IMG/VR virus record: IMGVR_UViG_3300043438_001628
Source: an uncultured virus (IMG/VR IMGVR_UViG_3300043438_001628)
Taxonomy: Duplodnaviria > Heunggongvirae > Uroviricota > Caudoviricetes
Length of the DNA: 64,000 nt
Strand: one strand, 5' to 3'
This document shows positions 10,441 through 50,947 of this stretch, in pieces. Numbering within the stretch: position 1 is the stretch's first letter; each line of letters begins with the position of its first letter. A program made the translations under genes and the position numbers. The notes beneath the pieces were generated by a model. The model had not been told where the DNA came from. It ran no database searches and worked only from the letters and a program-made list of their open reading frames with translations.

Positions 10441-10672
10441 TTAAAATTTCAAAGCTGTGATAGTTAAAAAACGGAAGATCTCTTTCTTCGTCATAGATTG
10501 GAATTTCTTGTAGCCAGAGATATGTTCCTGAACTAGCAATTTCGACCTTTTCAACCGTATATTCTTTTCCAATCTCCAGAAGTTTTTGGTCTTCTACAAG
10601 ATTGTTGAACCAATGGTGGGTGATTGGTTTTACGAATTTTGCTTTAGTTCCTCTCAATGCTGCTGTTTTCAT
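10430..10672 (-). CDS. Hypothetical protein
   Basis: ATGA overlap with YopX stop. Confidence 0.7.
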   Translation of the reverse strand: MKTAALRGTKAKFVKPITHHWFNNLVEDQKLLEIGKEYTVEKVEIASSGTYLWLQEIPIYDEERDLPFFNYHSFEILNEN

Positions 10673-11091
10673 TGTTTTAAGAGTTCAGGAGTTTCGAAGA
10701 TATTTCCGATGACTTCACAATAACCTCTTATTACAAGCCAGAAATAAGCATCACTGATATCATCATCGTGTTCCCTAAACACAAACCATGCATGGTTCTG
10801 ATCCCATTCACAAATGAAAACTTTATCAACAGCTTCTTCTGGATAAGAGTCTCCATCGAATGTGTATTTTAGAATATCCCCTTCGTAGATTTCCTTTCCG
10901 TTCTTGTCTGTCAGACCAGTGAATTGTTGAACCGAGAGATTATTATGATAATTAGATCTGCCACCGTGTATAGGTAAAATCCCACCTTCGATTTTTAAAC
11001 TTATATTTTCAGCATCTGATTTTCTGCTGGTGCTAGACATTAGAAATTTCTCACCATCCCATACTCTAAATTTAATCTTCCGCGAGTCCAT
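10669..11091 (-). CDS. YopX-family protein (copy 6)
   Basis: KFRVWD / QQFTGLTDKNGKEIYEGDI / EVIGNIFETPELL. Confidence 0.85.
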   Translation of the reverse strand: MDSRKIKFRVWDGEKFLMSSTSRKSDAENISLKIEGGILPIHGGRSNYHNNLSVQQFTGLTDKNGKEIYEGDILKYTFDGDSYPEEAVDKVFICEWDQNHAWFVFREHDDDISDAYFWLVIRGYCEVIGNIFETPELLKQ

Positions 11092-11296
11092 ATTCTATAC
11101 TTGATTTAATAATACAATAATGATTCAATTCATCTGCTACAATCTTCCATTGTGGACTCCAACGACACGATAGATAAACACTGCCATCCTCGTTTGGTGG
11201 AGGACTGTGACCTATTGATTGTTCTGGATCTAATTTCATCAAGCGGCAATATTCATACGCTGCTTTCTTTAGTTGCTCTGGTGTTAGTTTCATCAC
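11072..11296 (-). CDS. Hypothetical protein between YopX copies
   Basis: Overlaps both YopX neighbours. Confidence 0.65.
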   Translation of the reverse strand: MMKLTPEQLKKAAYEYCRLMKLDPEQSIGHSPPPNEDGSVYLSCRWSPQWKIVADELNHYCIIKSSIEYGLAED

Positions 11297-11649
11297 TTTA
11301 CGAGTTCAGGGTTTTCAAACACATTACCAGCAATTTCATAAAAGTCAAACCAATTTCCAGTGTTTCCTCCGTGCTCTTTAGTTGTTTTCCAAGCACCAGC
11401 TTCTTCATCCCATATAACCTCCCAATACAGCGGTCCTAATCCAATATCATGTTTGACGATATCCCCCTCGTAGATTTCCTTACCGTTTTTGTCTTTCAGA
11501 CCAGTAAATTGTTGAATCACTAAATTCTCCGCTTGATATTTAGAGGGGAAAAATTCAAAGATTTTACCATGAGCAGAACTAAAGACGGGAGCATAGGAAG
11601 TCCATTCTCGATCAGCTTTATCCCAAATTCTAAATTTTAGTTCTCTCAT
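11293..11649 (-). CDS. YopX-family protein (copy 5; start trimmed to MRELKF)
   Basis: Three YopX anchor motifs. Confidence 0.85.
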   Translation of the reverse strand: MRELKFRIWDKADREWTSYAPVFSSAHGKIFEFFPSKYQAENLVIQQFTGLKDKNGKEIYEGDIVKHDIGLGPLYWEVIWDEEAGAWKTTKEHGGNTGNWFDFYEIAGNVFENPELVK

Positions 11650-11911
11650 TGTATTCCTTTTCTTTTTGGTTATAGAGTTTTTTAAATTCCCTATCGTAAA
11701 CCTCTTCAAACTTATTTCTTAAATTATCAACATTACTCAATGGAGTATCATCATAACCAACTAATTGAAATTGAAGAACTGCCATTCGTTTTTTGTCAAA
11801 ATCTGCCAGTACACAATCCTTCATATATGACATCAAGCTCAGGATTCCCATAGAATCCATGTGTTTTGTTGCTTTGTCAAAAGCTTTTTGATTTTCAGAT
11901 TTTCGCTTCAT
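11630..11911 (-). CDS. Hypothetical protein between YopX copies
   Basis: ATGA overlap with YopX stop. Confidence 0.65.
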   Translation of the reverse strand: MKRKSENQKAFDKATKHMDSMGILSLMSYMKDCVLADFDKKRMAVLQFQLVGYDDTPLSNVDNLRNKFEEVYDREFKKLYNQKEKEYNERTKI

Positions 11912-12285
11912 TGCTTTAATAGTTCAGGGTTCTCAAAGATATTTCCAACAACTTCAAAATCTTTTATTAAATCTTTTAGTAGATTCAGCCAGCCGTCTTC
12001 GGTAGAAACGGAAGCAGCGAAACAACAACGAGCTTGATTCCATTTCACGGACATGATCAATCCATCTGAATTTTTTATATAATCCCCTTCGTAGATTTCC
12101 TTTCCGTTTTTGTCTTTCAGACCAGTGAATTGTTGGACAATAATGCATTCATCTGGTAAATCAGCAGATAAAGTAGACCACGGTGCTGGATGAATTTTTT
12201 TACCATCCATTTGAAGGTATTGAGAATCTTCACACCACCAACGTTTTATACCCTTATCCCAAATTCTAAACTTCAGTTCTCTCAT
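11908..12285 (-). CDS. YopX-family protein (copy 4)
   Basis: Three YopX anchor motifs. Confidence 0.85.
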   Translation of the reverse strand: MRELKFRIWDKGIKRWWCEDSQYLQMDGKKIHPAPWSTLSADLPDECIIVQQFTGLKDKNGKEIYEGDYIKNSDGLIMSVKWNQARCCFAASVSTEDGWLNLLKDLIKDFEVVGNIFENPELLKQ

Positions 12286-12641
12286 TGCTTTAATAGTTCG
12301 TTATTCTCAAAGATATTTCCAATGACCTCGACGCCAAAAGAAGAAAATAAATAGCCGGAACTATTTGTTTCATTATCTTCAATGTGAAATTTAACAGTGT
12401 GTAATTTACCGTTAAATAGCCTGAGAATATCACCCTCGTAAATTTCTTTACCATTCTTATCCTTTAATCCAGTATATTGTTGGATTTTTCCATCAGCAGA
12501 CCACAATTTTTCATGTGATGAAAATGTACCACCGTAATCTTGTTCATAATCCCATAAACTCCCATCAGAAGTTTTGATATATGTATCAGGAATTGTGACA
12601 AAACAGCATCCATTCCAAATTCTAAATTTCAGTTCTCTCAT
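12282..12641 (-). CDS. YopX-family protein (copy 3)
   Basis: Three YopX anchor motifs. Confidence 0.85.
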   Translation of the reverse strand: MRELKFRIWNGCCFVTIPDTYIKTSDGSLWDYEQDYGGTFSSHEKLWSADGKIQQYTGLKDKNGKEIYEGDILRLFNGKLHTVKFHIEDNETNSSGYLFSSFGVEVIGNIFENNELLKQ

Positions 12642-13000
12642 TGCTTTAATAGTTCGGAGTTCTTAAAGATATTTCCAACAACTGCATTCTCAAAAATCCA
12701 CCCTTTAAAACTTGTAGTGACATTTCCAGATTTTTCTCTCAATCTCCAAGCAGAATCATTTTCATACCAAATAACTTCTCTAATAAACCCCTCTGGAGAT
12801 CTTAAAATATCACCTTCATAGATTTCTTCTCCGTTTTTGTCTTTTAGACCAGTGAATTGTTGAAGAATAAATGATTTCTCTTCTTCAGCCGATAAAGGAT
12901 CATCGCTGCCGTGAATTGCAGAAAGTATATTACCAGCAACAATTTCATAGTCAAACTCTTCTTCATCTACACACCACACTCTAAATTTTATTTCTCTCAT
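12638..13000 (-). CDS. YopX-family protein (copy 2)
   Basis: Three YopX anchor motifs. Confidence 0.85.
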   Translation of the reverse strand: MREIKFRVWCVDEEEFDYEIVAGNILSAIHGSDDPLSAEEEKSFILQQFTGLKDKNGEEIYEGDILRSPEGFIREVIWYENDSAWRLREKSGNVTTSFKGWIFENAVVGNIFKNSELLKQ

Positions 13001-13416
13001 TGCTTTGATAGTTCAGGGGTTTCAAAAACATTTCCAATTACTTCACAGTACCCTCTTATTACAATCCAGAAATAAGCATCACTGATATCATCATCGTGTT
13101 CCCTAAACACAAACCATGCATTGTCCTGATCCCATTCACAAATGAAAATTTTATCAACAGCTTCTTCGAGATAAGAGTCTCCATCGAATGTATATTTTAC
13201 AATATCACCCTCATAAATTTCCTTACCGTTTTTGTCTTTTAGACCAGTGTATTGTTGAGCGACGATGAATGACTTTTCAATATCAAATGGATCATCCCAT
13301 GCCATCATGTCATAATCATAACCTATACACTGACCATCCCCTTGAATAGCATACTTACTCGCTGGTTGAAATTTGTGTGCTAGTGTATTCCAAAATCTAA
13401 ATTTAAGAGGTCTCAT
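12997..13416 (-). CDS. YopX-family protein (copy 1)
   Basis: Three YopX anchor motifs; first gene after motif B. Confidence 0.85.
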   Translation of the reverse strand: MRPLKFRFWNTLAHKFQPASKYAIQGDGQCIGYDYDMMAWDDPFDIEKSFIVAQQYTGLKDKNGKEIYEGDIVKYTFDGDSYLEEAVDKIFICEWDQDNAWFVFREHDDDISDAYFWIVIRGYCEVIGNVFETPELSKQ

Positions 13417-15208: not shown

Positions 15209-15593
15209 ACTTTTCTTTCAGTTTTGCTAAAAGAGCAAGCTCAGAGTCAATTTCTTCTTGAGCTTTTTTACGCTTCTTTTTTTCCTGTTTTTGCTTTTCG
15301 AGAATATCCTTCTCAAGCTGTTTTTGATGTTGAGCTAGTCGTTCGTAGTAAACACTATCAGTTTCAAGTCGCTCACCGTAAATACTGATTTTGTATGGAG
15401 CATCCCAACCACCCCAACCAAACTTTAGTTGAATGTTACTAAACCCTTCTTTGGTGAATTTTTCTTCTTGCTTTTGTAAGAAAGAAATAACTTCGGAAAG
15501 CTTGGTAGCGTCAAAGCATGTTCCAATATGAAGTAATTCTTCCTCAATTAATTGTCGTTCTGTGAAGTCGGCTTGTTTAGTCTTTTTTTTCAT
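15198..15593 (-). CDS. Hypothetical protein (start trimmed to MKKKTK)
   Basis: C-terminal LAKLKEKYE; similar ending to 16038-16382. Confidence 0.65.
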   Translation of the reverse strand: MKKKTKQADFTERQLIEEELLHIGTCFDATKLSEVISFLQKQEEKFTKEGFSNIQLKFGWGGWDAPYKISIYGERLETDSVYYERLAQHQKQLEKDILEKQKQEKKKRKKAQEEIDSELALLAKLKEKYES

Positions 15594-15819
15594 CGTGGTT
15601 TTGATTGAATCGAGGATGTAGAGGCATCTTAAGTTTAGCAAATCCCAATTTATTGATTATACTCTCAACTGTCTGTTCTGGATAGGAGTTTAACTCTTTT
15701 ATAACATCAATGGCTTGTGGTGTTGAGATATCACCGTTTTCTAATCTCAAAGAGATTTCATTCGCTAAGTTTAGTGAAAGCGACACCTCTTCAATATACT
15801 GTTTCAGTTTACTGTTCAT
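15577..15819 (-). CDS. Hypothetical protein
   Basis: Packed ORF. Confidence 0.55.
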   Translation of the reverse strand: MNSKLKQYIEEVSLSLNLANEISLRLENGDISTPQAIDVIKELNSYPEQTVESIINKLGFAKLKMPLHPRFNQNHDEKKD

Positions 15820-16060
15820 CACAATCTTTAATCTCAAATCCCCATGGGGAAAAATTACTCTTTGTATCTTCTTCCAACTTAATCAATCGAAACATACCAT
15901 CATGCTTGGCAAAGCCGTGAAGCTCTACCCAAGCCTTAAATGATACTCCCCAACCTGTGGTTCCAAGAGTAATACTTTTACAATATTCAGCAATCAAACA
16001 CCGAACTTGATATTCAGTGAAATCACCGTAATCGACTTTACGTTCTGGTTTGTCCGTCAT
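15809..16060 (-). CDS. Hypothetical protein
   Basis: Packed ORF. Confidence 0.6.
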   Translation of the reverse strand: MTDKPERKVDYGDFTEYQVRCLIAEYCKSITLGTTGWGVSFKAWVELHGFAKHDGMFRLIKLEEDTKSNFSPWGFEIKDCDEQ

Positions 16061-16382
16061 ATTTTTCCTTTAATCTAGCAAGTTCTTTTAGTTCACGCTC
16101 TCGTAGGGTATTATCAATTCTTTCGTTAGCGATACGATCCAGTTCAAGTTCCTCTGGAGTCTTTGGAATCCAACCACTAATGTCAATATCACCATCTCCA
16201 GTATAAACATCAACCATAGTTTTAACTACCCCTGCTTTCTTGGCAGCTTCATTGAGTTTAGTGAAATATTCAATCAATTCATCAAGAGTTTCCCCACGCC
16301 CCCAACAGCCATATTCCTGTTGAAAATCTGGAAGATATTCTAGTCTTACTCGTTTGTGTGTTCTGTAGTCGATTGAATCCAT
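16038..16382 (-). CDS. Hypothetical protein
   Basis: Follows motif A; ELARLKEKYD ending. Confidence 0.7.
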   Translation of the reverse strand: MDSIDYRTHKRVRLEYLPDFQQEYGCWGRGETLDELIEYFTKLNEAAKKAGVVKTMVDVYTGDGDIDISGWIPKTPEELELDRIANERIDNTLRERELKELARLKEKYDGQTRT

Positions 16383-16387
16383 AGTTT

Positions 16388-16403
16388 ATTTTATCAGAGT
16401 TCC
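16388..16403 (-). promoter_or_regulatory. Motif A early promoter
   Basis: GGAACTCTGA-TAAAAT-AAACT-ATG. Confidence 0.75.
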
Positions 16404-16735
16404 TAGAGAAGTGGAAGTTCTTTAAGGATCGCATGTAGTTTTGGACTGATGTGTTCACAACGTCTGATCTTAGGAGTACCTTCACCGCGACCAGTGTAAC
16501 GTGCTTCAATTTCGATTCCCCAGTAATAGCAGCGCTTATGAGCCCAAATATGAAAATTGCATTCTCCTTCAGGATTATAGTAACTGCGCAGCGGATGAAC
16601 GATGTCCTTGCTGTTTAGTATGTATCCAGTCGGAAGCGTATCAATGATGCGTGGAGAGATGAAGTCCTTAGGTTCATATTCTTTTAGATGTTCGGCAATA
16701 ATTTTGTTAACCTCATCGGCATCTTCTTCATTCAT
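16403..16735 (-). CDS. Hypothetical protein
   Basis: ATGA overlap with pth2 stop. Confidence 0.65.
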   Translation of the reverse strand: MNEEDADEVNKIIAEHLKEYEPKDFISPRIIDTLPTGYILNSKDIVHPLRSYYNPEGECNFHIWAHKRCYYWGIEIEARYTGRGEGTPKIRRCEHISPKLHAILKELPLL

Positions 16736-17151
16736 AGTAATGGTAGATGGTCAGTAATTCCTTCAAACTTTTCTTCTGAGTGTGGTCCGATGGCACAGCA
16801 GGTCTTGGTTTTCACACCGTTGAATTCAGTTGCTCCGTTGTCTTCGATCATATGAGAAATCAGTCCAGAGTCAAGAGCTTTTTGATGAACTGCTTCAAGT
16901 TCCTCTTCGCTGTTGACATATACACAGATCTTACGAAATGAATTACGAAGCCAGTGATTAATTTCTTCAGTAAATGCAAGACAGGCAAAAAAACAAGGAT
17001 CTCCTTGTGAATCTATTGTCTGTGATATTGAAAAATTTTTAGTTATAAATGCCATGCTGGCGTGTGCGACTTGACTACAATATTTTCCAGTCCTAAGACT
17101 TGGGAATTTTCTTACTACAATTACCATCTTTGTATTTTTTTCTTCCTGCAT
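16732..17151 (-). CDS. pth2: Peptidyl-tRNA hydrolase, Pth2 family
   Basis: KMVIVVRK...GKYCSQVAHAS...KICVYV...IEDNGATEF...TCCAIGP. Confidence 0.85.
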   Translation of the reverse strand: MQEEKNTKMVIVVRKFPSLRTGKYCSQVAHASMAFITKNFSISQTIDSQGDPCFFACLAFTEEINHWLRNSFRKICVYVNSEEELEAVHQKALDSGLISHMIEDNGATEFNGVKTKTCCAIGPHSEEKFEGITDHLPLL

Positions 17152-17977
17152 ATATTTTTATATCCTTTAAAAATCTTTTAATTACGTGTTTACTATACCC
17201 AGATTCTTGTAAAATTTCTGGAACTATTTTTCCATATGTTTTATATAAACGAATTATTAATTCCTGCGATTCGATATCAACCTCAACATAATTATTATTT
17301 TTTGATCCAAGTTTAGCATCTCGCATTCTTTGTAGACCAGCTTCACTAATGTTCACACGTTTTCCGTTTACTAATTTATTTTTATGCGTTGTGGACATTT
17401 TAGATTTAATTTGTTCTGCTTTTTCGTTATATTTCTCATCATATGACATTTTCAACCATTCTTTATGATTCTGATCATTATGTAATTCTTTAGCGCATCT
17501 AGATAAACCCGCCTTTAATTCTATTGCCTTTTCCACGCCATACAATTCTTCGTATGTTTTTCCACATCTAGATTTATTAATTTCGGAAATTTTATTGTAA
17601 TGATCTTCTGATAATGGACCTTTTGCAATTCCTTTAGTTGCGTTGGATATTTTAGTTTTAGTCTCTTCTGTATGTTTGTAACCAACTGTGCCATCACCTC
17701 CAATCGTCATATTATAACCATTAGTGAAGGCATTGTATTTTTCAATATACTCTATCTCTTTAGAATTCAAAATTGCAAAGTCACACACGCTGTCTTCTAT
17801 AATTTCCCATGTAAAATTATCCCATCCATATTTTCTAATAGATCTGTAAAAATAATTCGGAAGATTTTTTGTAAGAGCGTTGTGCTTATGAACACTCTTT
17901 CTTTTTTGAAGAGTTTGAGATGTTATTCCAATGTAATGTTTTTTTGTAATGATATTAGTGCATAAGTAAACAATCAT
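17093..17977 (-). mobile_element. Free-standing GIY-YIG homing endonuclease with NUMOD3-like segments
   Basis: IVYLCTN...YIGIT...R...E...GYNMTIGGDG and HTEETKTKIS. Confidence 0.85.
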
Positions 17978-17981
17978 ATGA

Positions 17982-18023
17982 TTATTTATCCTTTCGCATT
18001 ACAATTACTTGCTTCGTGTTCAT
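17982..18023 (-). pseudogene. Orphaned original 5' end of pth2 (MNTKQVIVMRKDK*)
   Basis: Homologous to NTKMVIVVRK of 16732-17151; sits directly behind a motif B promoter. Confidence 0.75.
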
Positions 18024-18031
18024 CTGCGTCT

Positions 18032-18053
18032 ATTCTAGTTTAACGTTTTATTA
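18032..18053 (-). promoter_or_regulatory. Motif B early promoter
   Basis: TAATAAAACGTTAAAC-TAGAAT-8 nt-ATG. Confidence 0.7.
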
Positions 18054-18252
18054 CTGAAACATCATTTCGACCTATTGAAAGATTTTTCTGTATTCTTATT
18101 TCCGAATTTTTAAAAGTCCAACACTCCCCATTTTCATTCAAGAAAACAACCCACAGTAAATCATGCTCTTGAGAGTAATCAATTAGAAAATGAGCGAATC
18201 CTTTCCCTTTCGGAGTTTCGAGAGGGAGTGTTGGATTTAATTGGTGAATCAT
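18040..18252 (-). CDS. Conserved phage hypothetical protein
   Basis: QLNPTLPLETPKGKG...IDYSQEHDLLWVVF...GECWT. Confidence 0.75.
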   Translation of the reverse strand: MIHQLNPTLPLETPKGKGFAHFLIDYSQEHDLLWVVFLNENGECWTFKNSEIRIQKNLSIGRNDVSVIKR

Positions 18253-18608
18253 TTCTGATTCAATCTATAAATTAGATGATTGAATTCTCCCTCAATCTCA
18301 TCGCAGATATTTTTAAGATCTCCAGAATCATTAGAGATTGCTTGGAGGTAATCTACAAATTCACTTTTAAATTTTGAATATTGCGGGATTAGATCCCCTG
18401 AATACGATGAAAGTGTGATCTTGTAAGATGTCAAAGTATCTGGATATCCACCGTGTCCGTAAAAGTGTTCTATGTATTTGTCAAAAAGATCATCCAATGC
18501 ATCGTATGCAATTCCTAGAGCGGTATGTTCCGCATGCCTTCTTGTTTGTAGGTGATCAATTTTTAATTTATTTAAAATTCCGAAAAATGCAGTTAGATTT
18601 AAGTTCAT
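18249..18608 (-). CDS. Ferritin/Dps-like four-helix protein (DUF5856-like)
   Basis: HLQT..HAEHTALG..YD.L..LFD..IE pattern. Confidence 0.65.
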   Translation of the reverse strand: MNLNLTAFFGILNKLKIDHLQTRRHAEHTALGIAYDALDDLFDKYIEHFYGHGGYPDTLTSYKITLSSYSGDLIPQYSKFKSEFVDYLQAISNDSGDLKNICDEIEGEFNHLIYRLNQK

Positions 18609-18626
18609 TGTGATAGTTGTTTGGTT

Positions 18627-18830
18627 TTAGTTTAGTGAGTGTTTATTCAAACGATCAATGTCAGACTTTAGCTTGTTATTTTGAACTTGCAAGTGTAAAT
18701 TATCACCCGCTAGTTCAACTAATCGATGAGAAGCTTCTAGGATTGCAGCATTTGCAATTCCGTCATCGCTTTCAATGGATTCTGATAAGATCCTCATTGC
18801 TTCTGCTAATATATATGTGTCAGTTTTCAT
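18627..18830 (-). CDS. Hypothetical protein (start trimmed to MKTDTY)
   Basis: ATG lies at the end of the 39-bp repeat. Confidence 0.6.
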   Translation of the reverse strand: MKTDTYILAEAMRILSESIESDDGIANAAILEASHRLVELAGDNLHLQVQNNKLKSDIDRLNKHSLN

Positions 18831-19183
18831 ACCAAGGGTCATTGTCTTCTCGCCATTCAGCGATTTGTTCAGAAGAATCACTTTTGCGGATATGCCCATT
18901 CGAGCATGATCCGCCATGCGGTGATTCTTCGGGCTTTCTGTCCTGTTGCGTCAGTAATGACAGTGTATGCCAACAAAATGGTGTTTCGGTATCCTTTAGC
19001 GTCCGTGATCCACCATCCTTCGCGGTCGTAATTCACACGGACAAGCCAGCCGAATATCCAACGCATCCACTGAAATGAAGACGCTGCGGAAGTTGGTTGT
19101 AGATTCAGAGCTTTCATTTCTGTGTGGATGTATTTTGATCACTCTCATACCAAGGGTCATTGTCTTCTCGCCATTCAGCGATT
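18827..19183. repeat. Perfect 39-bp direct repeat (18827-18865, 19145-19183) flanking a GC-richer 279-bp insert
   Basis: tcataccaagggtcattgtcttctcgccattcagcgatt occurs twice. Confidence 0.9.
18878..19117 (-). CDS. Hypothetical Trp-rich protein within the insert
   Basis: ATGA overlap with 19114-19788 stop. Confidence 0.45.
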   Translation of the reverse strand: MKALNLQPTSAASSFQWMRWIFGWLVRVNYDREGWWITDAKGYRNTILLAYTVITDATGQKARRITAWRIMLEWAYPQK

Positions 19184-19788
19184 GTTGAAGAGATGTTGTT
19201 CAGGATACTGATCAAATCGCTTCTGTCAAAGATTGCAGGCTTATTATGAATCAGATTGTCGATAGTGTCAATCATTTTCTGAGTCTTAGACGGATGCTTC
19301 TTTCGAAGCTCCACCATTCGCTTTTTGTTTTCTTCCCAAGCTTTTATACGAGCTTCTTCACGATCATCAATTTCTTCTTGACTAAGTTTTCGAGGCAGCT
19401 TGATTTCAATAGGAATAATTTTTAAAACTTTACCATTCTCAACAATCGCCTTATAGAGAAATAACCCTGTTTCATAATGATTATTATATCCGTATCCGTA
19501 GTCATATTCAGGATGACGACGATAATCGTAGAACTCAAAGCTTCCGCTGTAATTAGACTGGAATACCCACTCTTCGCCCAGCTCATTCTCGATAAATCCA
19601 GTTGGACTATCTGAGCATTCTTTCCATTCAGAGACAATCCGCTCCAACAGGAGATGTCCATCCACTGTGATTTTATACCTCGCCATGCCTTGACATGGTG
19701 TTTCCTTGCTTTGAAAGCTCTGGACTTTGTATCCTTCAGGATAAGCAGGCAGAGGCATATCACAAATTACTGTATCGAACATTCCCAT
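19114..19788 (-). CDS. Conserved phage hypothetical protein
   Basis: MGMFDTV.C...FQSK N-terminus. Confidence 0.75.
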   Translation of the reverse strand: MGMFDTVICDMPLPAYPEGYKVQSFQSKETPCQGMARYKITVDGHLLLERIVSEWKECSDSPTGFIENELGEEWVFQSNYSGSFEFYDYRRHPEYDYGYGYNNHYETGLFLYKAIVENGKVLKIIPIEIKLPRKLSQEEIDDREEARIKAWEENKKRMVELRKKHPSKTQKMIDTIDNLIHNKPAIFDRSDLISILNNISSTIAEWREDNDPWYESDQNTSTQK

Positions 19789-19906: not shown

Positions 19907-20059
19907 TTATTTTGATTGTGCTATAATAAGTCCAATATTGGCTAGTGAATAGCCACCCCATACAAATGCCCAAGCATACTCACCTTTTAAAAGGTAGCTG
20001 ATTGCTACAATTGCATACAGTATAAACACTGAAAATATAACTATACTTTCAAAGTTCAT
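19907..20059 (-). CDS. Small membrane protein (50 aa)
   Basis: ...AFVWGGYSLANIGLII; overlaps rmlB stop. Confidence 0.6.
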   Translation of the reverse strand: MNFESIVIFSVFILYAIVAISYLLKGEYAWAFVWGGYSLANIGLIIAQSK

Positions 20060-21077
20060 CAGTTGATTGAAGATTTCCATATTTTCGTTTATAAAAATTA
20101 ACAGTTCTCGTTAGAGCGTCATCAAAATCTTCCAATGGTGTAGAAAATTGAAAAGATTTAGATTCGATAGCGTACCTGAAATCGTGACCCTTGCGGTCTT
20201 GGACGAACTCAATCGCATCGGACAATTTCAGTGTGCCACAATCATCAAATTTGTCAATCACTTTTTGAATCAATTGAAGATTTGTCAGCTCCACACCGGT
20301 TCCTATGTTGTAAATACCTCCCGAAACCCCACGATCAGCAACCTCTAGAACATACTTATTGTGATCTTTTACATAAATCCATTCTCTGATATTTGAGCCT
20401 TCTCCATAAACTGGAATTTTTTCTTTATTAACGAGTTTTCTAAGAATGGTTGGTATGAATTTTTCATCATACTGATTCTCCCCATAATTATTACAACATC
20501 TAGTCACCATAACATCAAGTCCAAATGTGTGATGGTATGATAATGAAATCAAATCAGAAGCTGCTTTAGAAGCAGCATATGGACTTCTTGGATTTAAAAT
20601 TGATTCTTCCGTGAATGGTTCATCTGAAAGATTCAAATGACCATAAACTTCATCGGTGGATATGTTGATAATTCTAGGGTTATGCTTTTGATTCTCTAAA
20701 ATAGACTGCATAAGATTCGCAGTTCCAATTGCATTATTAGTAATAAAATGCGTTGGATTATTAATACTTCTATCTACATGAGACTCTGCTGCAAAATGGA
20801 ATATATAATCAAACTTATACTTATTTGTAATATAATCTATTTCTTCTTTATCAATTAAATCAATTTTATTAAATTGATATTTACAATTATCAATATCTAT
20901 AAATTCAATAGGTATTGTATCTTCATCTGGATATATTTCTCTAGATCCGATTCCTAATTTATCAACATTTATTATTGATACATTATTATAATTATCAATA
21001 ATATATTCTACAAAATTACTTCCAATAAATCCTCTACCCCCAGTTACTAACAATGTTTTTCCATTTAAATCTATCAT
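20049..21077 (-). CDS. rmlB: dTDP-glucose 4,6-dehydratase
   Basis: VTGGRGFIGSNF, HFAAESHVDRSI, STDEVYG, PYAASKAA, DRKGHDFRYA. Confidence 0.93.
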   Translation of the reverse strand: MIDLNGKTLLVTGGRGFIGSNFVEYIIDNYNNVSIINVDKLGIGSREIYPDEDTIPIEFIDIDNCKYQFNKIDLIDKEEIDYITNKYKFDYIFHFAAESHVDRSINNPTHFITNNAIGTANLMQSILENQKHNPRIINISTDEVYGHLNLSDEPFTEESILNPRSPYAASKAASDLISLSYHHTFGLDVMVTRCCNNYGENQYDEKFIPTILRKLVNKEKIPVYGEGSNIREWIYVKDHNKYVLEVADRGVSGGIYNIGTGVELTNLQLIQKVIDKFDDCGTLKLSDAIEFVQDRKGHDFRYAIESKSFQFSTPLEDFDDALTRTVNFYKRKYGNLQSTDEL

Positions 21078-41185: not shown

Positions 41186-41407
41186 ATGAACAAAATAAAA
41201 CTATTAAAAGGATTAGCTCAGCGTGAAGATAAAATATTAGATGCTATTGAAGAATTACAGATTTTCTTAGATTCAACCGAAGACGAAGAACTTTCCAGTA
41301 TGGGAAATGAATTGACATCATCGCTTATTGACTTTTTGGAAGGAAATGATAATGTCAATGTACATGACATCAAAACTTTCATCGAAGACGAATACACACA
41401 GTCGTAA
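41186..41407 (+). CDS. Small acidic hypothetical protein
   Basis: TAAATA 8 nt upstream. Confidence 0.65.
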   Translation: MNKIKLLKGLAQREDKILDAIEELQIFLDSTEDEELSSMGNELTSSLIDFLEGNDNVNVHDIKTFIEDEYTQS

Positions 41408-42248
41408 AGTCCTAATTTTAGGCAGCGGCTACATAGCGAGCCATCTCAATACAACATTATTGAGTGTGGGTCACAGTGTTAAAATGCTGGACTCAAAAAG
41501 TACAAACTATCATGATGAGCGGGTCTTTTGGAGAGAGTTAAACTTCGAATTTGAACCCGACATCGTGATAAATTGCAGTGGATTCACAGGAAGACCAAAT
41601 ATAGACGAAGCAGAGTCTAAAAAAGAGGAATGTTGGAGATTAAATGTCACATCACCACTGAGATGTGCTGAATTAACAGCCCAATTGGGAAAAAGATACA
41701 TTCATATAGGAAGTGGATGCATATACACCGGATACGATGCTTCTTACACAGAAGAAGATGCTCCAAATTTCGGATTATTCGACAATGATAGTTCGTTTTA
41801 CAGCAAAACCAAGCATGCATTTGAGGTGATGACCCGACATTTACCCATCACAATAGTGAGAATTCGTATGCCTATCAGCAGCATACACGATGATCGGAGC
41901 TATTTGTCTAAAATCCGAAAATACAACGATTTGATCGATTACAAGAACAGCAAGACATACATTCCAGATCTATGCAACTTCGTCATCGAACTAATCAACA
42001 AGCAAAACACACTAGAATACAAATACGATATCTACAATGTCGTTAATCCAAACCCATTATCAACATCGGATGTTGTAAAAATCATGAAAAAGCACGGAAA
42101 GGACAATCCGAATTGGAAATTTGTGGATATTGCTGATATTCCAATCATAGCAGGGCGAAGCAACTGCATTTTAGACGATTCTAAAGTTAAAAAAATAATC
42201 GAAATGAGAGACGAACGCGATATTCTAGAGGAGGTGTTGAATGATTAA
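41364..42248 (+). CDS. NDP-4-keto-6-deoxyglucose 3,5-epimerase/4-reductase (NRS/ER, UER1-like; RmlD-family SDR)
   Basis: GSGYIA, GFTGRPNID, GCIY, SFYSKTK, RIRMPIS; start approximate. Confidence 0.8.
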   Translation: MTSKLSSKTNTHSRKVLILGSGYIASHLNTTLLSVGHSVKMLDSKSTNYHDERVFWRELNFEFEPDIVINCSGFTGRPNIDEAESKKEECWRLNVTSPLRCAELTAQLGKRYIHIGSGCIYTGYDASYTEEDAPNFGLFDNDSSFYSKTKHAFEVMTRHLPITIVRIRMPISSIHDDRSYLSKIRKYNDLIDYKNSKTYIPDLCNFVIELINKQNTLEYKYDIYNVVNPNPLSTSDVVKIMKKHGKDNPNWKFVDIADIPIIAGRSNCILDDSKVKKIIEMRDERDILEEVLND

Positions 42249-49132: not shown

Positions 49133-50947
49133 ATGAGCAATAAAGATACATTGGAGTATAATCTTCCACAAACAGCGTATGTTAATTTCGATGCTGTTTC
49201 TTTAAAAAATTTCATAATACAAAGATTAAACGAAAATTCAACATTCACTGATCAAAATTACGAAGGAAGTAATATATCATTCCTTATTGAAATTTTAGCG
49301 TATTACACGCATGTTTTAATGTTTTATTTGAATCAAAACAGTTCAGAATCTTTATTTGATCAATCTTCGATTTATGAAAACATGAATCGCATAGTTAAGC
49401 TTATTGGATATAAACCAACAGGTCAGCAAACATCAATAGTTCCAGTAAATTGTGTAGCGGCGGCTGATTTAGCTATCGGAAGCTATATGATTAGAAAATA
49501 TAGTTATATTTTGGTTGATAGTATCCAATACACTGTATTAAATGATACAATTTTCGAAAAAACCACAAATTCTGAAGAAATAATACAATCCATCAATGAT
49601 AATTTGATATTGTATCAAGGAACTGTTGAAGAATACCCATCTTACATCGCTGAAGGTATCGGATTTGAAACTTTACCAGTGGTGGTGGATAATTTAGTGG
49701 ATGCATCTACTTCTAAATTCATATCTGATGGTACATTGAGTGTCTATGTAAAGGAAACCAACAATAATACTTGGTATGAGTATAAGGAGATCGACACATT
49801 ATACCTATCCAAGCCAACTGATAGATTTTACGAAGTTCGCTTGAATGAAAGCGGAAATTATGAAATTAAATTTGGAAATGATACATTCGGAAAACAATTA
49901 GCCATCGGTGATGAGGTTAAAGTAATGTATATCCTGAGCGATGGAAATAAAGGAATCATAAGCAAAAATGCTATAAATGGGAATAAGCTGTTTACTTATT
50001 TTACAAACACATTCAATCAAATATATGAAGATACAACAGCTTCAAATTCTCAAATCATAACAACCACACTGAGTTCTCTGTTGACATTTTCAAATCCTTT
50101 AAACTCTACCACTATAAGTGAAGCTGAAAGTGTGGAATCTATAAAAAACAATGCTCCTTATCTGATAGCAGCTCAATATAGATTAGTCACTGAAGAAGAT
50201 TACGAAAAATTCATTCTAAAAAGCCTCCCCAACATTCTAAACTCAGTTAAGGTGGTTGATAATGATAGATTTTTAGGAGAATATATCGACTATTACTATA
50301 GAATATGTGTAGATCCCAATAAAGTCAACCGAGTTTTAATTAACCAAGTAAATTTTGCAGATTCTTGCGATTTTAACAATGTTAATATTTTCTGCGTTCC
50401 TAAATTTGATGTTCTTAGAGATGCAAGTTATCCCAATTATCTAAGTGAGTCATTTAAAAATCTTATAATAGATCTGACCAGAGGTAAAAAGATGATATCA
50501 AGTGAGATAGTCGCCAGAGATCCAATATATACAGCATTCGATGTCGGATTTAGTACATCATCAACAGCATTTTCGATTGTTTCAAACTCTAGAATAGTCG
50601 TTGTTCGAGATAAAAACAATAAAATTAATAAATCAACACTTAAAACTAAAGTGAATGATTTTATATTAGATTTTTTCAAGCCATCTAATAACACACTTGG
50701 ACAAACTCTCAATTTATCAGATTTAACTGCTAATATCTTAGGAATTGATGGAATTTCATCAATTAGAACCGAAAACACATTAGAAAATACATTCTTCAAT
50801 GGATTATCATTCTTATCGTGGAATCCTGTATATGCAGACAGTGATAATGATCTTGTCAATCAGACAACTACATTACCATTTTATAAATTTCCATATTTTT
50901 ATTCTCCTCAGTCTCTTATAAATAAAATAGAAATAATCGATGCCTGA
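49133..50947 (+). CDS. gp6: Baseplate wedge protein (start trimmed to MSNKDT)
   Basis: FTDQNYEGSNIS.LIEILAY, IKFGN, ESVESIKNNAP, RLVTEEDY. Confidence 0.88.
   Translation: MSNKDTLEYNLPQTAYVNFDAVSLKNFIIQRLNENSTFTDQNYEGSNISFLIEILAYYTHVLMFYLNQNSSESLFDQSSIYENMNRIVKLIGYKPTGQQTSIVPVNCVAAADLAIGSYMIRKYSYILVDSIQYTVLNDTIFEKTTNSEEIIQSINDNLILYQGTVEEYPSYIAEGIGFETLPVVVDNLVDASTSKFISDGTLSVYVKETNNNTWYEYKEIDTLYLSKPTDRFYEVRLNESGNYEIKFGNDTFGKQLAIGDEVKVMYILSDGNKGIISKNAINGNKLFTYFTNTFNQIYEDTTASNSQIITTTLSSLLTFSNPLNSTTISEAESVESIKNNAPYLIAAQYRLVTEEDYEKFILKSLPNILNSVKVVDNDRFLGEYIDYYYRICVDPNKVNRVLINQVNFADSCDFNNVNIFCVPKFDVLRDASYPNYLSESFKNLIIDLTRGKKMISSEIVARDPIYTAFDVGFSTSSTAFSIVSNSRIVVVRDKNNKINKSTLKTKVNDFILDFFKPSNNTLGQTLNLSDLTANILGIDGISSIRTENTLENTFFNGLSFLSWNPVYADSDNDLVNQTTTLPFYKFPYFYSPQSLINKIEIIDA

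Follow-up and report, generated by a model that had tools for sequence, protein, structure and literature searches.

Homing endonucleases are known to enter coding regions safely within introns or inteins or, rarely and in phages, by splitting a gene into pieces that still work. In T4-like phages, the free-standing Seg (GIY-YIG) and Mob (HNH) enzymes, for example, SegG at gene 32 and SegE at uvsW, are encoded between genes, contain expression signals of the downstream gene within their own ORFs, and cut the neighbor gene of endonuclease-free relatives with co-conversion of the flanks, as described in a review (PMC2988022). The same review describes genes split by free-standing endonucleases, namely, Aeh1 nrdA with mobE, T4 gene 39/60 with mobA, and gene 43 of phage 25, in which two polypeptides reassemble. 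Gene hybrids made by mobile ORFs (mORFs) have been reported from fungal mitochondria, in atp6 of Allomyces macrogynus and in atp6, atp9, cox2, and nad3 of Glomus (PMC3630166). In Torulaspora and Lachancea yeasts, WHO elements occupy FBA1, and their allele-specific cleavage was demonstrated by experiment (PMC7282813).

We analyzed a window of 64,000 nucleotides, the whole stretch of DNA under study, from an uncultured T4-like myovirus of a lake. It is highly probable that, in this phage, a free-standing GIY-YIG endonuclease forms one cassette with a replacement 5' end for its target, the peptidyl-tRNA hydrolase gene pth2, and that the cassette spreads by homing. Like the Seg and Mob enzymes, the endonuclease stands outside introns, holds expression signals of the downstream gene in its ORF, and would cut the neighboring gene of endonuclease-free relatives and spread with co-converted flanks; unlike them, it lies inside a coding region and has left a displaced gene start. 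Nowhere does the review of those enzymes (PMC2988022) use a word with the stem "duplicat". The locus resembles the split genes in having a free-standing endonuclease in a coding region without an intron but differs in that one complete polypeptide is restored.

All features of the locus are on the minus strand. The upstream flank (18608-18040) consists of a DUF5856 gene (18608-18249) and a 70-aa ORF (18252-18040). It is followed by a stub ORF of 13 codons, MNTKQVIVMRKDK with its stop (18023-17982; ATG at 18023-18021, TAA at 17984-17982), in which the first 12 codons (18023-17988) are those of the native pth2 and AAA TAA (17987-17982) already belongs to the insert. Three parts make up the mobile block of 923 nt (17987-17065): an A/T-rich box, the endonuclease gene, and a run of 29 foreign pth2 codons. 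The box, GATAAATAA, which is present in the window and in a second phage (L001) and has the version TATAAATAT in a more diverged locus (L004), carries ATAAATA at the left border (17983-17989) and overlaps the TAA of the stub; TAAATA ends 5 bases short of the endonuclease ATG. The endonuclease gene (17977-17093, 294 aa), with a NUMOD3 module and a probable GIY-YIG domain, begins four bases behind the stub TAA. The foreign pth2 5' end, MQEEKNTKMVIVVRKFPSLRTGKYCSQVA (17151-17065), has its first 59 nt inside the 3' end of the endonuclease gene in a different frame, and both the substitute start codon and an upstream AAGGA lie there. A 90-nt block toward the 3' end of the endonuclease gene (17225-17136) is conserved. 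The native pth2 body (17064-16732) begins at codon H30 of the hybrid ORF and includes its stop, and the uninterrupted hybrid pth2, which begins MQEEKNTKMVIVVRKF, encodes 139 aa (17151-16732). The GC content was 29.6% in the cassette and 38.1% in the flanks.

Endonuclease-free relatives with a contiguous pth2, which an earlier sequence-only reading had called for as a check, were found in metagenome contigs of the same phage lineage (L103-L105). In blastn alignments with L103, homology stopped at 17988 and restarted at 17064, with identities of 93.6% for 18865-17988 and 90.7% for 17064-16741 (324 nt); the pth2 body was 90.7% identical to that of L103-L105. The endonuclease is thus a presence/absence polymorphism at one site between flanks that are 91 to 94% identical, and where the empty allele has 39 nt (13 codons), the window has 923 nt. 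The stub is not a chance ORF, because its first 36 bases were identical to the first 12 codons of L103 pth2 (36/36), compared with 21/30 for the inserted copy over the same 30 bases. In addition, the 13 native codons that follow in L103 (LNMRRGKQIAQGS) are absent from the window and are replaced by foreign codons. The cassette therefore lies after native pth2 codon 12, codons 13 to 25 are replaced, and codons 1 to 12 are left as a dead stub; the complete hybrid pth2 results from this insertion.

These results agree with the sequence-only reading in its central proposal that a free-standing endonuclease lies inside the pth2 coding region and that a substitute, overlapping 5' end restores the whole gene. 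The mini-ORF had been placed at the same coordinates, the 59-nt overlap of the endonuclease gene with the intact pth2 in another frame had been noted, the stub stop does overlap a TAAATA box 5 nt from the endonuclease ATG, the old and new codons that it quoted agree at 21 of 30 bases, and its mini-ORF is the displaced native start of pth2. Two claims needed revision. The duplication of about 10 codons exists, but 13 further native codons were also replaced. Likewise, the substitute 5' end is present and keeps the gene whole, but it is a foreign allele travelling with the endonuclease, not as a recoded copy of the resident start.

The same cassette was found in L001, which shares the upstream flank (DUF5856 gene and 70-aa ORF) with the window and the empty allele. 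Between the window and L001, the cassette was 94.6 to 97.7% identical, whereas the flanks and the pth2 body were 66.9 to 73.2% identical. The foreign pth2 5' ends matched at 85 of 87 bases (97.7%) and the pth2 bodies at 71.7%, and third-codon-position identity was 91.6% in the endonuclease compared with 47.5%, 47.9%, and 56.5% in three flanking genes. The two phages have equal borders: on the left, AAGGAT is followed by AAATAAT, and on the right, the cassette ends before CACGCC. Since the block exceeds its flanks in identity, also at third codon positions, and shares both borders, it was transferred horizontally in one piece between phage backbones that had already diverged. In a tree of pth2 bodies, the window paired with the empty L103-L105 (support, 98/96), and the three endonuclease-bearing alleles were not grouped (3 changes, at least 2 of them forced). 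In contigs from two other studies, the left junction was recovered with 0 differences (X2, record 7) and the right junction with 4 (X4, record 19). In X3, record 12, the cassette end was joined to an L009-like pth2 body. The cassettes of the window and L001 differ by about 5%, and their transfer was therefore not recent.

The stub and the preceding spacer followed the backbone, with 70.7% identity between the window and L001, and the L001 stub (MQTKQVIVVRKDK and a stop) differed from that of the window at 7 of 36 bases. This difference bears on the possibility of an ordinary endonuclease with co-converted flanks, whose stub would be a neutral scar, with junctions produced by end joining at one fixed cut. 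In its favor, the stub is short, AAGGAT microhomology could yield an equal junction twice, and the left border is not invariant, because L004/L005, in another gene neighborhood, have a diverged endonuclease (47% amino acid identity for L004) before pth2 with an 8-codon stub and a junction unlike that of the window and L001. However, the window and L001 junctions are letter-identical although their stubs differ and the cassette arrived after the backbones had diverged; this therefore points to homologous pairing, as the homing model predicts, and would be a coincidence under end joining. We consider the scar explanation unlikely.

The cassette was carried by only three viral contigs in addition to the window, and many of the 80 metagenome loci are short of upstream DNA. 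Exact-pattern scans of viral contigs for the cassette pth2 start and for the endonuclease start recovered only the known contigs and L007, and a protein-pattern scan for the endonuclease yielded 65 distant GIY-YIG loci and a single close one, L033, which is the L001 contig. A scan for the DUF5856 neighbor returned one locus, L032. A megablast search with 16300-18700 found no match among 50,697 phage records, and the phage has no close cultured relative. No paralogue was found within the window below an E value of 0.4.

The 294-aa ORF matched Pfam NUMOD3 at residues 99 to 116 (23.8 bits; cutoff, 20.4) and two PHROGs homing-endonuclease families (E values of 5.5e-25 and 8e-19), and tblastn recovered annotated phage GIY-YIG homing endonucleases with E values down to 3e-27. 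By eye, the N terminus shows IVY...YIG and Arg, His, Glu, and Asn residues that we take to be spaced as in I-TevI. The match to Pfam GIY-YIG (PF01541) had an E value of 4e-4 and, at 21 bits, was just below the curated cutoff of 22.6, and a PDB sequence search with the endonuclease gave nothing at E values up to 0.01; for these two reasons, the activity of the window copy is only assumed, from its intact length and motifs. An old, immobile relic, with an inactive or domesticated endonuclease and a layout kept by descent alone, would fit that low GIY-YIG score and the weak constraint suggested by the codon changes that separate the L001 copy from that of the window, 17 nonsynonymous and 19 synonymous (94% amino acid identity), and the gene may now be drifting. 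Against this, the ORF was full length in all four contigs, and its nucleotide identity between backbones was far above that of the flanks. Furthermore, filled and other pth2 alleles occurred together in the same lakes, and one contig was broken exactly at the right border (17063/17064). We therefore regard a relic as quite unlikely.

A self-splicing intron that holds the endonuclease, with the mini-ORF as a first exon spliced to the pth2 body, was also considered. In phage genes, a short first exon can escape notice, and endonucleases can adjoin introns, according to one study (PMC10448857); in addition, the ATG and reading frame of the stub were intact in all three loci. However, Rfam gave no match on either strand of 15500-19500 at E values up to 1. 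From 17988 to the equivalent codon of the new copy, the insert is endonuclease ORF except for 10 nt on the 5' side. The insert also has its own in-frame ATG and a second set of codons 2 to 11, which an intron would not need, and the downstream ORF by itself spans the entire PTH2 profile. Splicing is thus unneeded, because there is no Rfam intron and the new pth2 ORF is complete, and the absence of an intron, as had been proposed from the letters, is upheld. An intron is very unlikely here. An assembly chimera of two pth2 alleles is hardly credible, since the same junctions occurred in the different backbone of L001 and in contigs of other studies (X2, X4), although the source is uncultured and several pth2 alleles co-occur per sample.

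Expression signals were examined around the borders. The heptamer ATAAATA preceded six ORF starts, compared with 0.75 expected, and five tail and baseplate genes have it; TATAAATA was not enriched within the window. The box, which the sequence-only reading linked to late expression of the nuclease, is possibly a T4-type late-promoter element or no more than an A/T-rich leader; at 5 nt from the ATG, it is too close for a leader with a ribosome-binding site. The motif before the stub, ACTAGAATAG, had 10 matches compared with 4.8 expected when one mismatch was allowed. With eight sigma-70-type promoters found and 11.5 expected, the count does not argue for a promoter within the endonuclease gene. 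Neither at the endonuclease start nor at the pth2 start was an RNA hairpin significant (z, -0.37 to -1.84).

The proposed homing cycle would proceed as follows. The endonuclease would cut an endonuclease-free pth2 of the RKDLNMRKGK type in or beside the replaced 39-nt stretch, and in a mixed infection, the break would be repaired from the cassette-bearing genome. On the left side, the broken end would pair with the donor stub, which would serve as the left homology arm, and the letters of the recipient would be kept. On the right side, the end would be chewed back to the first conserved stretch, the codons for H-A-S-M, so that foreign codons of the RKFPSLRTGKY type would be copied in. These codons would destroy the recognition site and make the new allele immune. 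The new allele is plausibly resistant to cleavage, given how far the replaced stretch departs from the conserved type found without the endonuclease. The pth2 gene would be translated from the cassette's own start, rather than as a protein beginning MNTKQVIVMRKD, and splicing would therefore not be required.

A more elaborate reading, in which a full splicing-free homing cycle at a gene 5' end, use of the stub, and deletion by direct repeats act jointly, is offered tentatively and is, as a whole, doubtful. The 12-codon stub is presumably useless as a gene, but as the displaced native start it may provide the homology on the left side, and the endonuclease may use its Lys-Asp codons, AAGGAT, as a ribosome-binding site. 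The border box and the first endonuclease codons may form a hairpin that limits translation from read-through transcripts, by analogy with T4. The diverged copies of codons 2 to 11 may also act as direct repeats for clean deletion of the endonuclease. If true, such deletion would account for alleles of the F type that lack the endonuclease, stay immune, and have a native-type start (L002, L003, L016, and L115).

Next, we compared the hybrid pth2 with other alleles. The 139-aa ORF matched PF01981 (PTH2) with an E value of 9e-26 (90.8 bits; cutoff, 23) over positions 2 to 115 of 115, and it aligned to the archaeal Pth2 structures 2zv3, 1rlk, and 1xty (E values of 1.6e-13 and weaker). Among 54 pattern-fitting loci, 37 distinct D-type and 6 distinct F-type N-terminal sequences were found. 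The uninterrupted D type is the common one and is also that of archaeal Pth2, a polarity that favors the cassette model, and the Asp of RKD is changed to Phe in all cassette-type alleles. The GK, Q..HA, and DNG.TE stretches were invariant in the pth2 alignment (A1). One allele, in L007/L111, combines 46 nt of the cassette's pth2 start with presumed-sensitive D-type codons and has no endonuclease. We weighed whether it is where the MQEEK start originated or what remained after the endonuclease was lost, but each fits incompletely, and the cassette model leaves this allele unexplained.

These findings point to a further route into coding regions in phage, in which the element supplies a spare gene start, as backed by the empty site and the second backbone. 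Through such elements, a conserved and presumably catalytic N terminus acquires foreign codons, and mosaic alleles arise. The locus is also a compact system open to testing: the enzyme has 294 aa, the target spans about 60 bp, and both presumably sensitive and presumably immune alleles occur in nature. Annotators may meet displaced gene starts as tiny ORFs ahead of free-standing endonucleases. Our literature searches found no phage report of a 5'-end-replacing endonuclease cassette.

The closest parallels lie in fungi. As in the mORF hybrids, an endonuclease ORF brings a foreign gene end in frame with the resident gene without splicing, and the native end is kept as a remnant that resembles the sister genome more than the inserted end does (PMC3630166). 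Unlike those hybrids, which swap the 3' end in an organelle, the window locus swaps the 5' end in a phage; its remnant lies upstream with an intact ATG, and the gene start overlaps the endonuclease ORF. A 5'-end swap is harder than a 3'-end swap, because the cassette must bring a start codon and translation signals and a translatable stub is left upstream. The locus also resembles the WHO elements in entering a protein gene without splicing and replacing a gene end with each integration, whereas WHO replaces the 3' end, belongs to an intein-like endonuclease family, and resides in a nuclear eukaryotic genome, and cleavage is only predicted here (PMC7282813). Altogether, the window locus can be regarded, by analogy, as the 5'-end mirror image of the fungal mitochondrial mORF hybrids and the yeast WHO elements.

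The locus is part of a series of short genes on the minus strand in an uncultured lake myovirus that is T4-like, and the runs containing the region derive from lake-water metagenomes. The window contains tail sheath, two tail-tube, baseplate wedge, large terminase, and clamp loader genes. On the minus strand, a DUF5856 gene (Pfam; 18608-18249) and a 70-aa ORF (18252-18040) are followed, after 16 nt, by the 13-codon ORF MNTKQVIVMRKDK with its stop codon (18023-17982), here called the stub, and, after 4 nt, by a 294-aa ORF (17977-17093), whose last 59 nt are overlapped in another frame by a 139-aa ORF (17151-16732). The 139-aa ORF matched the whole Pfam PTH2 profile (E 9e-26) as well as archaeal Pth2 structures. 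The 294-aa ORF, the endonuclease gene, scored over the Pfam cut-off for NUMOD3 and slightly under it for GIY-YIG, and it matched PHROGs homing-endonuclease families (E 5.5e-25) and annotated phage GIY-YIG genes (best E 3e-27). All details quoted in the sequence-only reading, which proposed a splicing-free homing endonuclease invasion of pth2, were present in the sequence. Elsewhere in the window, a near-tandem paralogue array (10672-13416, minus strand) holds six ORFs of 119-140 aa, all phrog_98 (unknown function; E 1e-27 to 1e-31), with a 74-aa ORF without a PHROG match (11075-11296) between the first two. Two phrog_540 nucleotide-sugar epimerase/dehydratase-like genes (20052-21077, minus strand; 41328-42245, plus strand) are located within and beside the structural module.

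A scan of metagenome contigs with alignment A1 (13 pth2 proteins) yielded 80 pth2 loci, three of which (L103-L105) belong to this phage lineage, lack the endonuclease, and carry an uninterrupted pth2 gene at the same place. The left flank (window 18865-17988, L103 1433-2310) and the right flank (window 17064-16741, L103 2350-2673) showed 93.6% and 90.7% identity, respectively. The intervening 39 nt of L103 (13 codons, LNMRRGKQIAQGS) belong to an uninterrupted pth2 starting MNTKQVIVMRKDLNMRRGKQIAQGSHASMAFITKNF. These are replaced in the window by 923 nt (17987-17065), the cassette, comprising AAATAATCAT, the endonuclease ORF, and 29 pth2 codons (MQEEKNTKMVIVVRKFPSLRTGKYCSQVA) that join the native body at H-A-S-M without a change of frame. 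Over its initial 36 nt, the stub matches the first 12 codons of the L103 pth2 exactly. Of 111 pth2-derived loci, 54 fitted the search pattern; in these the uninterrupted RKDLNMRKGK-type start (D type) was the common one, with 37 distinct sequences versus 6 of the RKF type, and it resembles archaeal Pth2. Because this start is common and archaeal-like, and because the 39 nt could not be recreated by deletion, the direction of the event, insertion into an uninterrupted gene, is clear.

It is very improbable that the endonuclease lies inside an intron with the stub as a short first exon. Short first exons beside endonucleases are described as easily overlooked (PMC10448857); however, Rfam returned nothing at E values up to 1 on both strands of 15500-19500, and, apart from 10 nt, everything in the insert that precedes the new pth2 start belongs to the endonuclease ORF. 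In addition, the new pth2 ORF has its own ATG, an AAGGA 11 nt before it, and a complete PTH2, and the second copy of codons 2-11 in the insert is not expected of an intron.

The cassette is well supported as real and mobile. A second cassette-bearing viral contig (L001) matches the window in gene order: DUF5856, the 70-aa ORF, the stub MQTKQVIVVRKDK with its stop, a 294-aa endonuclease, and a pth2 starting MQEEK. Nucleotide identity between the two was 66.9% for the DUF5856 gene, 73.2% for the 70-aa ORF, 70.7% for the spacer and stub, and 71.7% for the pth2 body, versus 94.6% and 95.6% for the two halves of the endonuclease and 97.7% for the 87-nt new pth2 start. Third-codon identities were 47.5% (120 codons), 47.9% (71 codons), and 56.5% (108 codons) for the host genes and 91.6% (275 codons) for the endonuclease. 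In at least one of the two backbones, the cassette must therefore have arrived long after their divergence. The window and L001 share a left border (AAG GAT, then AAATAAT) and a right border immediately before CAC GCC; the stub is part of the backbone and not of the cassette. The G+C content was 29.6% for the cassette and 38.1% for its flanks. A pth2-body tree was built from 35 sequences (25 distinct rows); 34 of 52 loci gave a complete body by pattern, and the others were excluded. In it, the window paired with the empty L103-L105 (support 98/96), and the three endonuclease-bearing alleles required three changes, of which well-supported branches force two or more.

Contigs from other studies support this layout. 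The left junction was spanned with 0 differences (run X2, record 7) and the right junction with four differences (X4, record 19), and two X2 contigs abut precisely at 17063/17064. Record 12 of run X3 covers window 17224-17048 and then continues unlike the window, with 26 letters that, read by eye, are those of an L009-type pth2 body (L009-L011 are without the endonuclease); this single low-depth contig hints weakly at a further cassette-bearing backbone. Window 17810-17845, inside the conserved N-terminal part of the GIY-YIG gene, is a point at which contigs from four lake metagenomes end or fork into several different continuations, and related endonuclease genes probably share this stretch within the same samples. 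The slot adjoining the cassette is variable: a 110-aa ORF just 3' of pth2 (16403-16735, minus strand) is missing in the otherwise collinear L105, which has a shorter spacer, and L001 has three other small ORFs there. A terminator-like hairpin (16993-17008, minus strand; 6-bp stem, then a T run) in the variable middle of the pth2 coding sequence is shared with L103.

A diverged endonuclease (244 aa, 47% aa identity) precedes pth2 in L004/L005 in a different gene neighbourhood, behind an 8-codon stub and TATAAATAT; pth2 again has the MQEEKNTKMVIV start. A 90-nt block over the endonuclease C-terminus and pth2 ATG was 91-98% identical between the window and L004, and the remainder 0-80%. Other GIY-YIG genes that are only distantly related (34-35% aa identity over ~96 residues) also lie at pth2, directly before it in a distant clade (L029, 3326-4000; absent from the relatives L026-L028) and just behind it on the opposite strand (L013/L014, 4949-5221, minus strand). 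Endonucleases seem to be drawn to the vicinity of pth2 repeatedly.

Four endonuclease-free alleles (L002, L003, L016, and L115) have an RKF-type stretch behind a native-type TKQ start. In pairwise comparisons, which are non-independent and cover few sites, third-position identity among seven RKF-type alleles was 0.69 for the 17-codon stretch versus 0.43 for the bodies (21 pairs), and among 13 D-type alleles 0.46 versus 0.48 (78 pairs). This suggests that the RKF-type stretch spread together with the cassette and that the endonuclease was lost from these four alleles, perhaps when the two copies of codons 2-11, which have the exact 9-mer GTAATTGTA in common, recombined. L007 (3990-4036; likewise L111) carries 46 nt of the cassette pth2 start, beginning roughly 10 nt upstream of the ATG and running to the end of MQEEKNTKMVIV, followed by the D-type codons RRDLNMRKGKM. 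The endonuclease is absent, and in L007 a 20-nt gap separates the preceding gene from the pth2 ATG; neither ancestry nor endonuclease loss is a full explanation of this allele.

The overall pattern fits repair of a double-strand break as the most likely mechanism. Alleles lacking the endonuclease would be cut by it within or beside the 39 nt that disappear, a stretch among the most conserved pth2 DNA (31 distinct close D-type alleles). The left broken end would pair with the stub of a co-infecting cassette-bearing genome, which would give the same junction in two backbones with each stub keeping its own letters. The right end, finding no homology in the foreign RKFPSLRTGKY codons, would be resected to the H-A-S-M codons, where both the window and L001 return to their own pth2 bodies. 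All endonuclease-bearing alleles (window, L001, and L004/L005) are of the RKF type with TKM, and, where upstream DNA is available, none of the 37 distinct D-type sequences follows this endonuclease. Immunity of the RKF-type stretch to cleavage is plausible.

The sequence-only reading also tied the endonuclease to late infection. ATAAATA occurs 28 times on both strands of the window, six of them no more than 40 nt ahead of an ORF start (86 starts considered), versus 0.75 expected under an even spread that ignores A/T-rich intergenic DNA. Besides the box at the endonuclease, five (50918, 58510, and 60265, plus strand; 35136 and 30504, minus strand) stand 2-23 nt before tail-tube, tail, or baseplate-module genes starting at 50940, 58539, 60278, 35120, and 30496, respectively, and are candidate T4-type late promoters of this phage. 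Like this excess, a perfect TATAAATA at the L004 junction speaks for a possible late promoter at the endonuclease. Against one, the same motif showed no enrichment in the window (10 versus 8.7 expected), and the box stands just 5 nt from the endonuclease ATG, so that a T4-type start would yield a nearly leaderless RNA. The stub Lys-Asp codons AAGGAT stand 11 nt before this ATG in the window and L001 and not in L004. A 9-bp hairpin can form in the window between the box and the first endonuclease codons, with similar hairpins in L001 and L004, and these were no better than shuffles (z -0.37, -0.76, and -1.84). In T4, a late promoter and a hairpin sequestering the ribosome-binding site are reported to limit endonuclease translation, and promoters of downstream genes are situated within endonuclease ORFs (PMC2988022); the expression scheme of the cassette recalls T4, as a resemblance only.

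The free-standing endonucleases described for T4-like phages either lie between genes or split a gene so that it yields two polypeptides (PMC2988022). A full-text search of open-access papers found neither a gene-end-replacing cassette in a phage nor an endonuclease at pth2, and either may exist in print. In mitochondrial mORF hybrids, such as Allomyces atp6 and Glomus atp6, atp9, cox2, and nad3, a foreign C-terminus and an endonuclease ORF are inserted, and the native C-terminus remains downstream; of the two C-termini, the native one is closer to the sister species (PMC3630166). Yeast WHO elements are reported to replace the FBA1 3' end at each integration, splicing-free and with allele-specific cutting (PMC7282813). 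With its 5' end replaced, the window cassette is a mirror image of both the mORF hybrids and the WHO elements. Gene-end replacement as such is already known; the apparent novelty of the cassette would lie in replacement of a 5' end, and in a phage.
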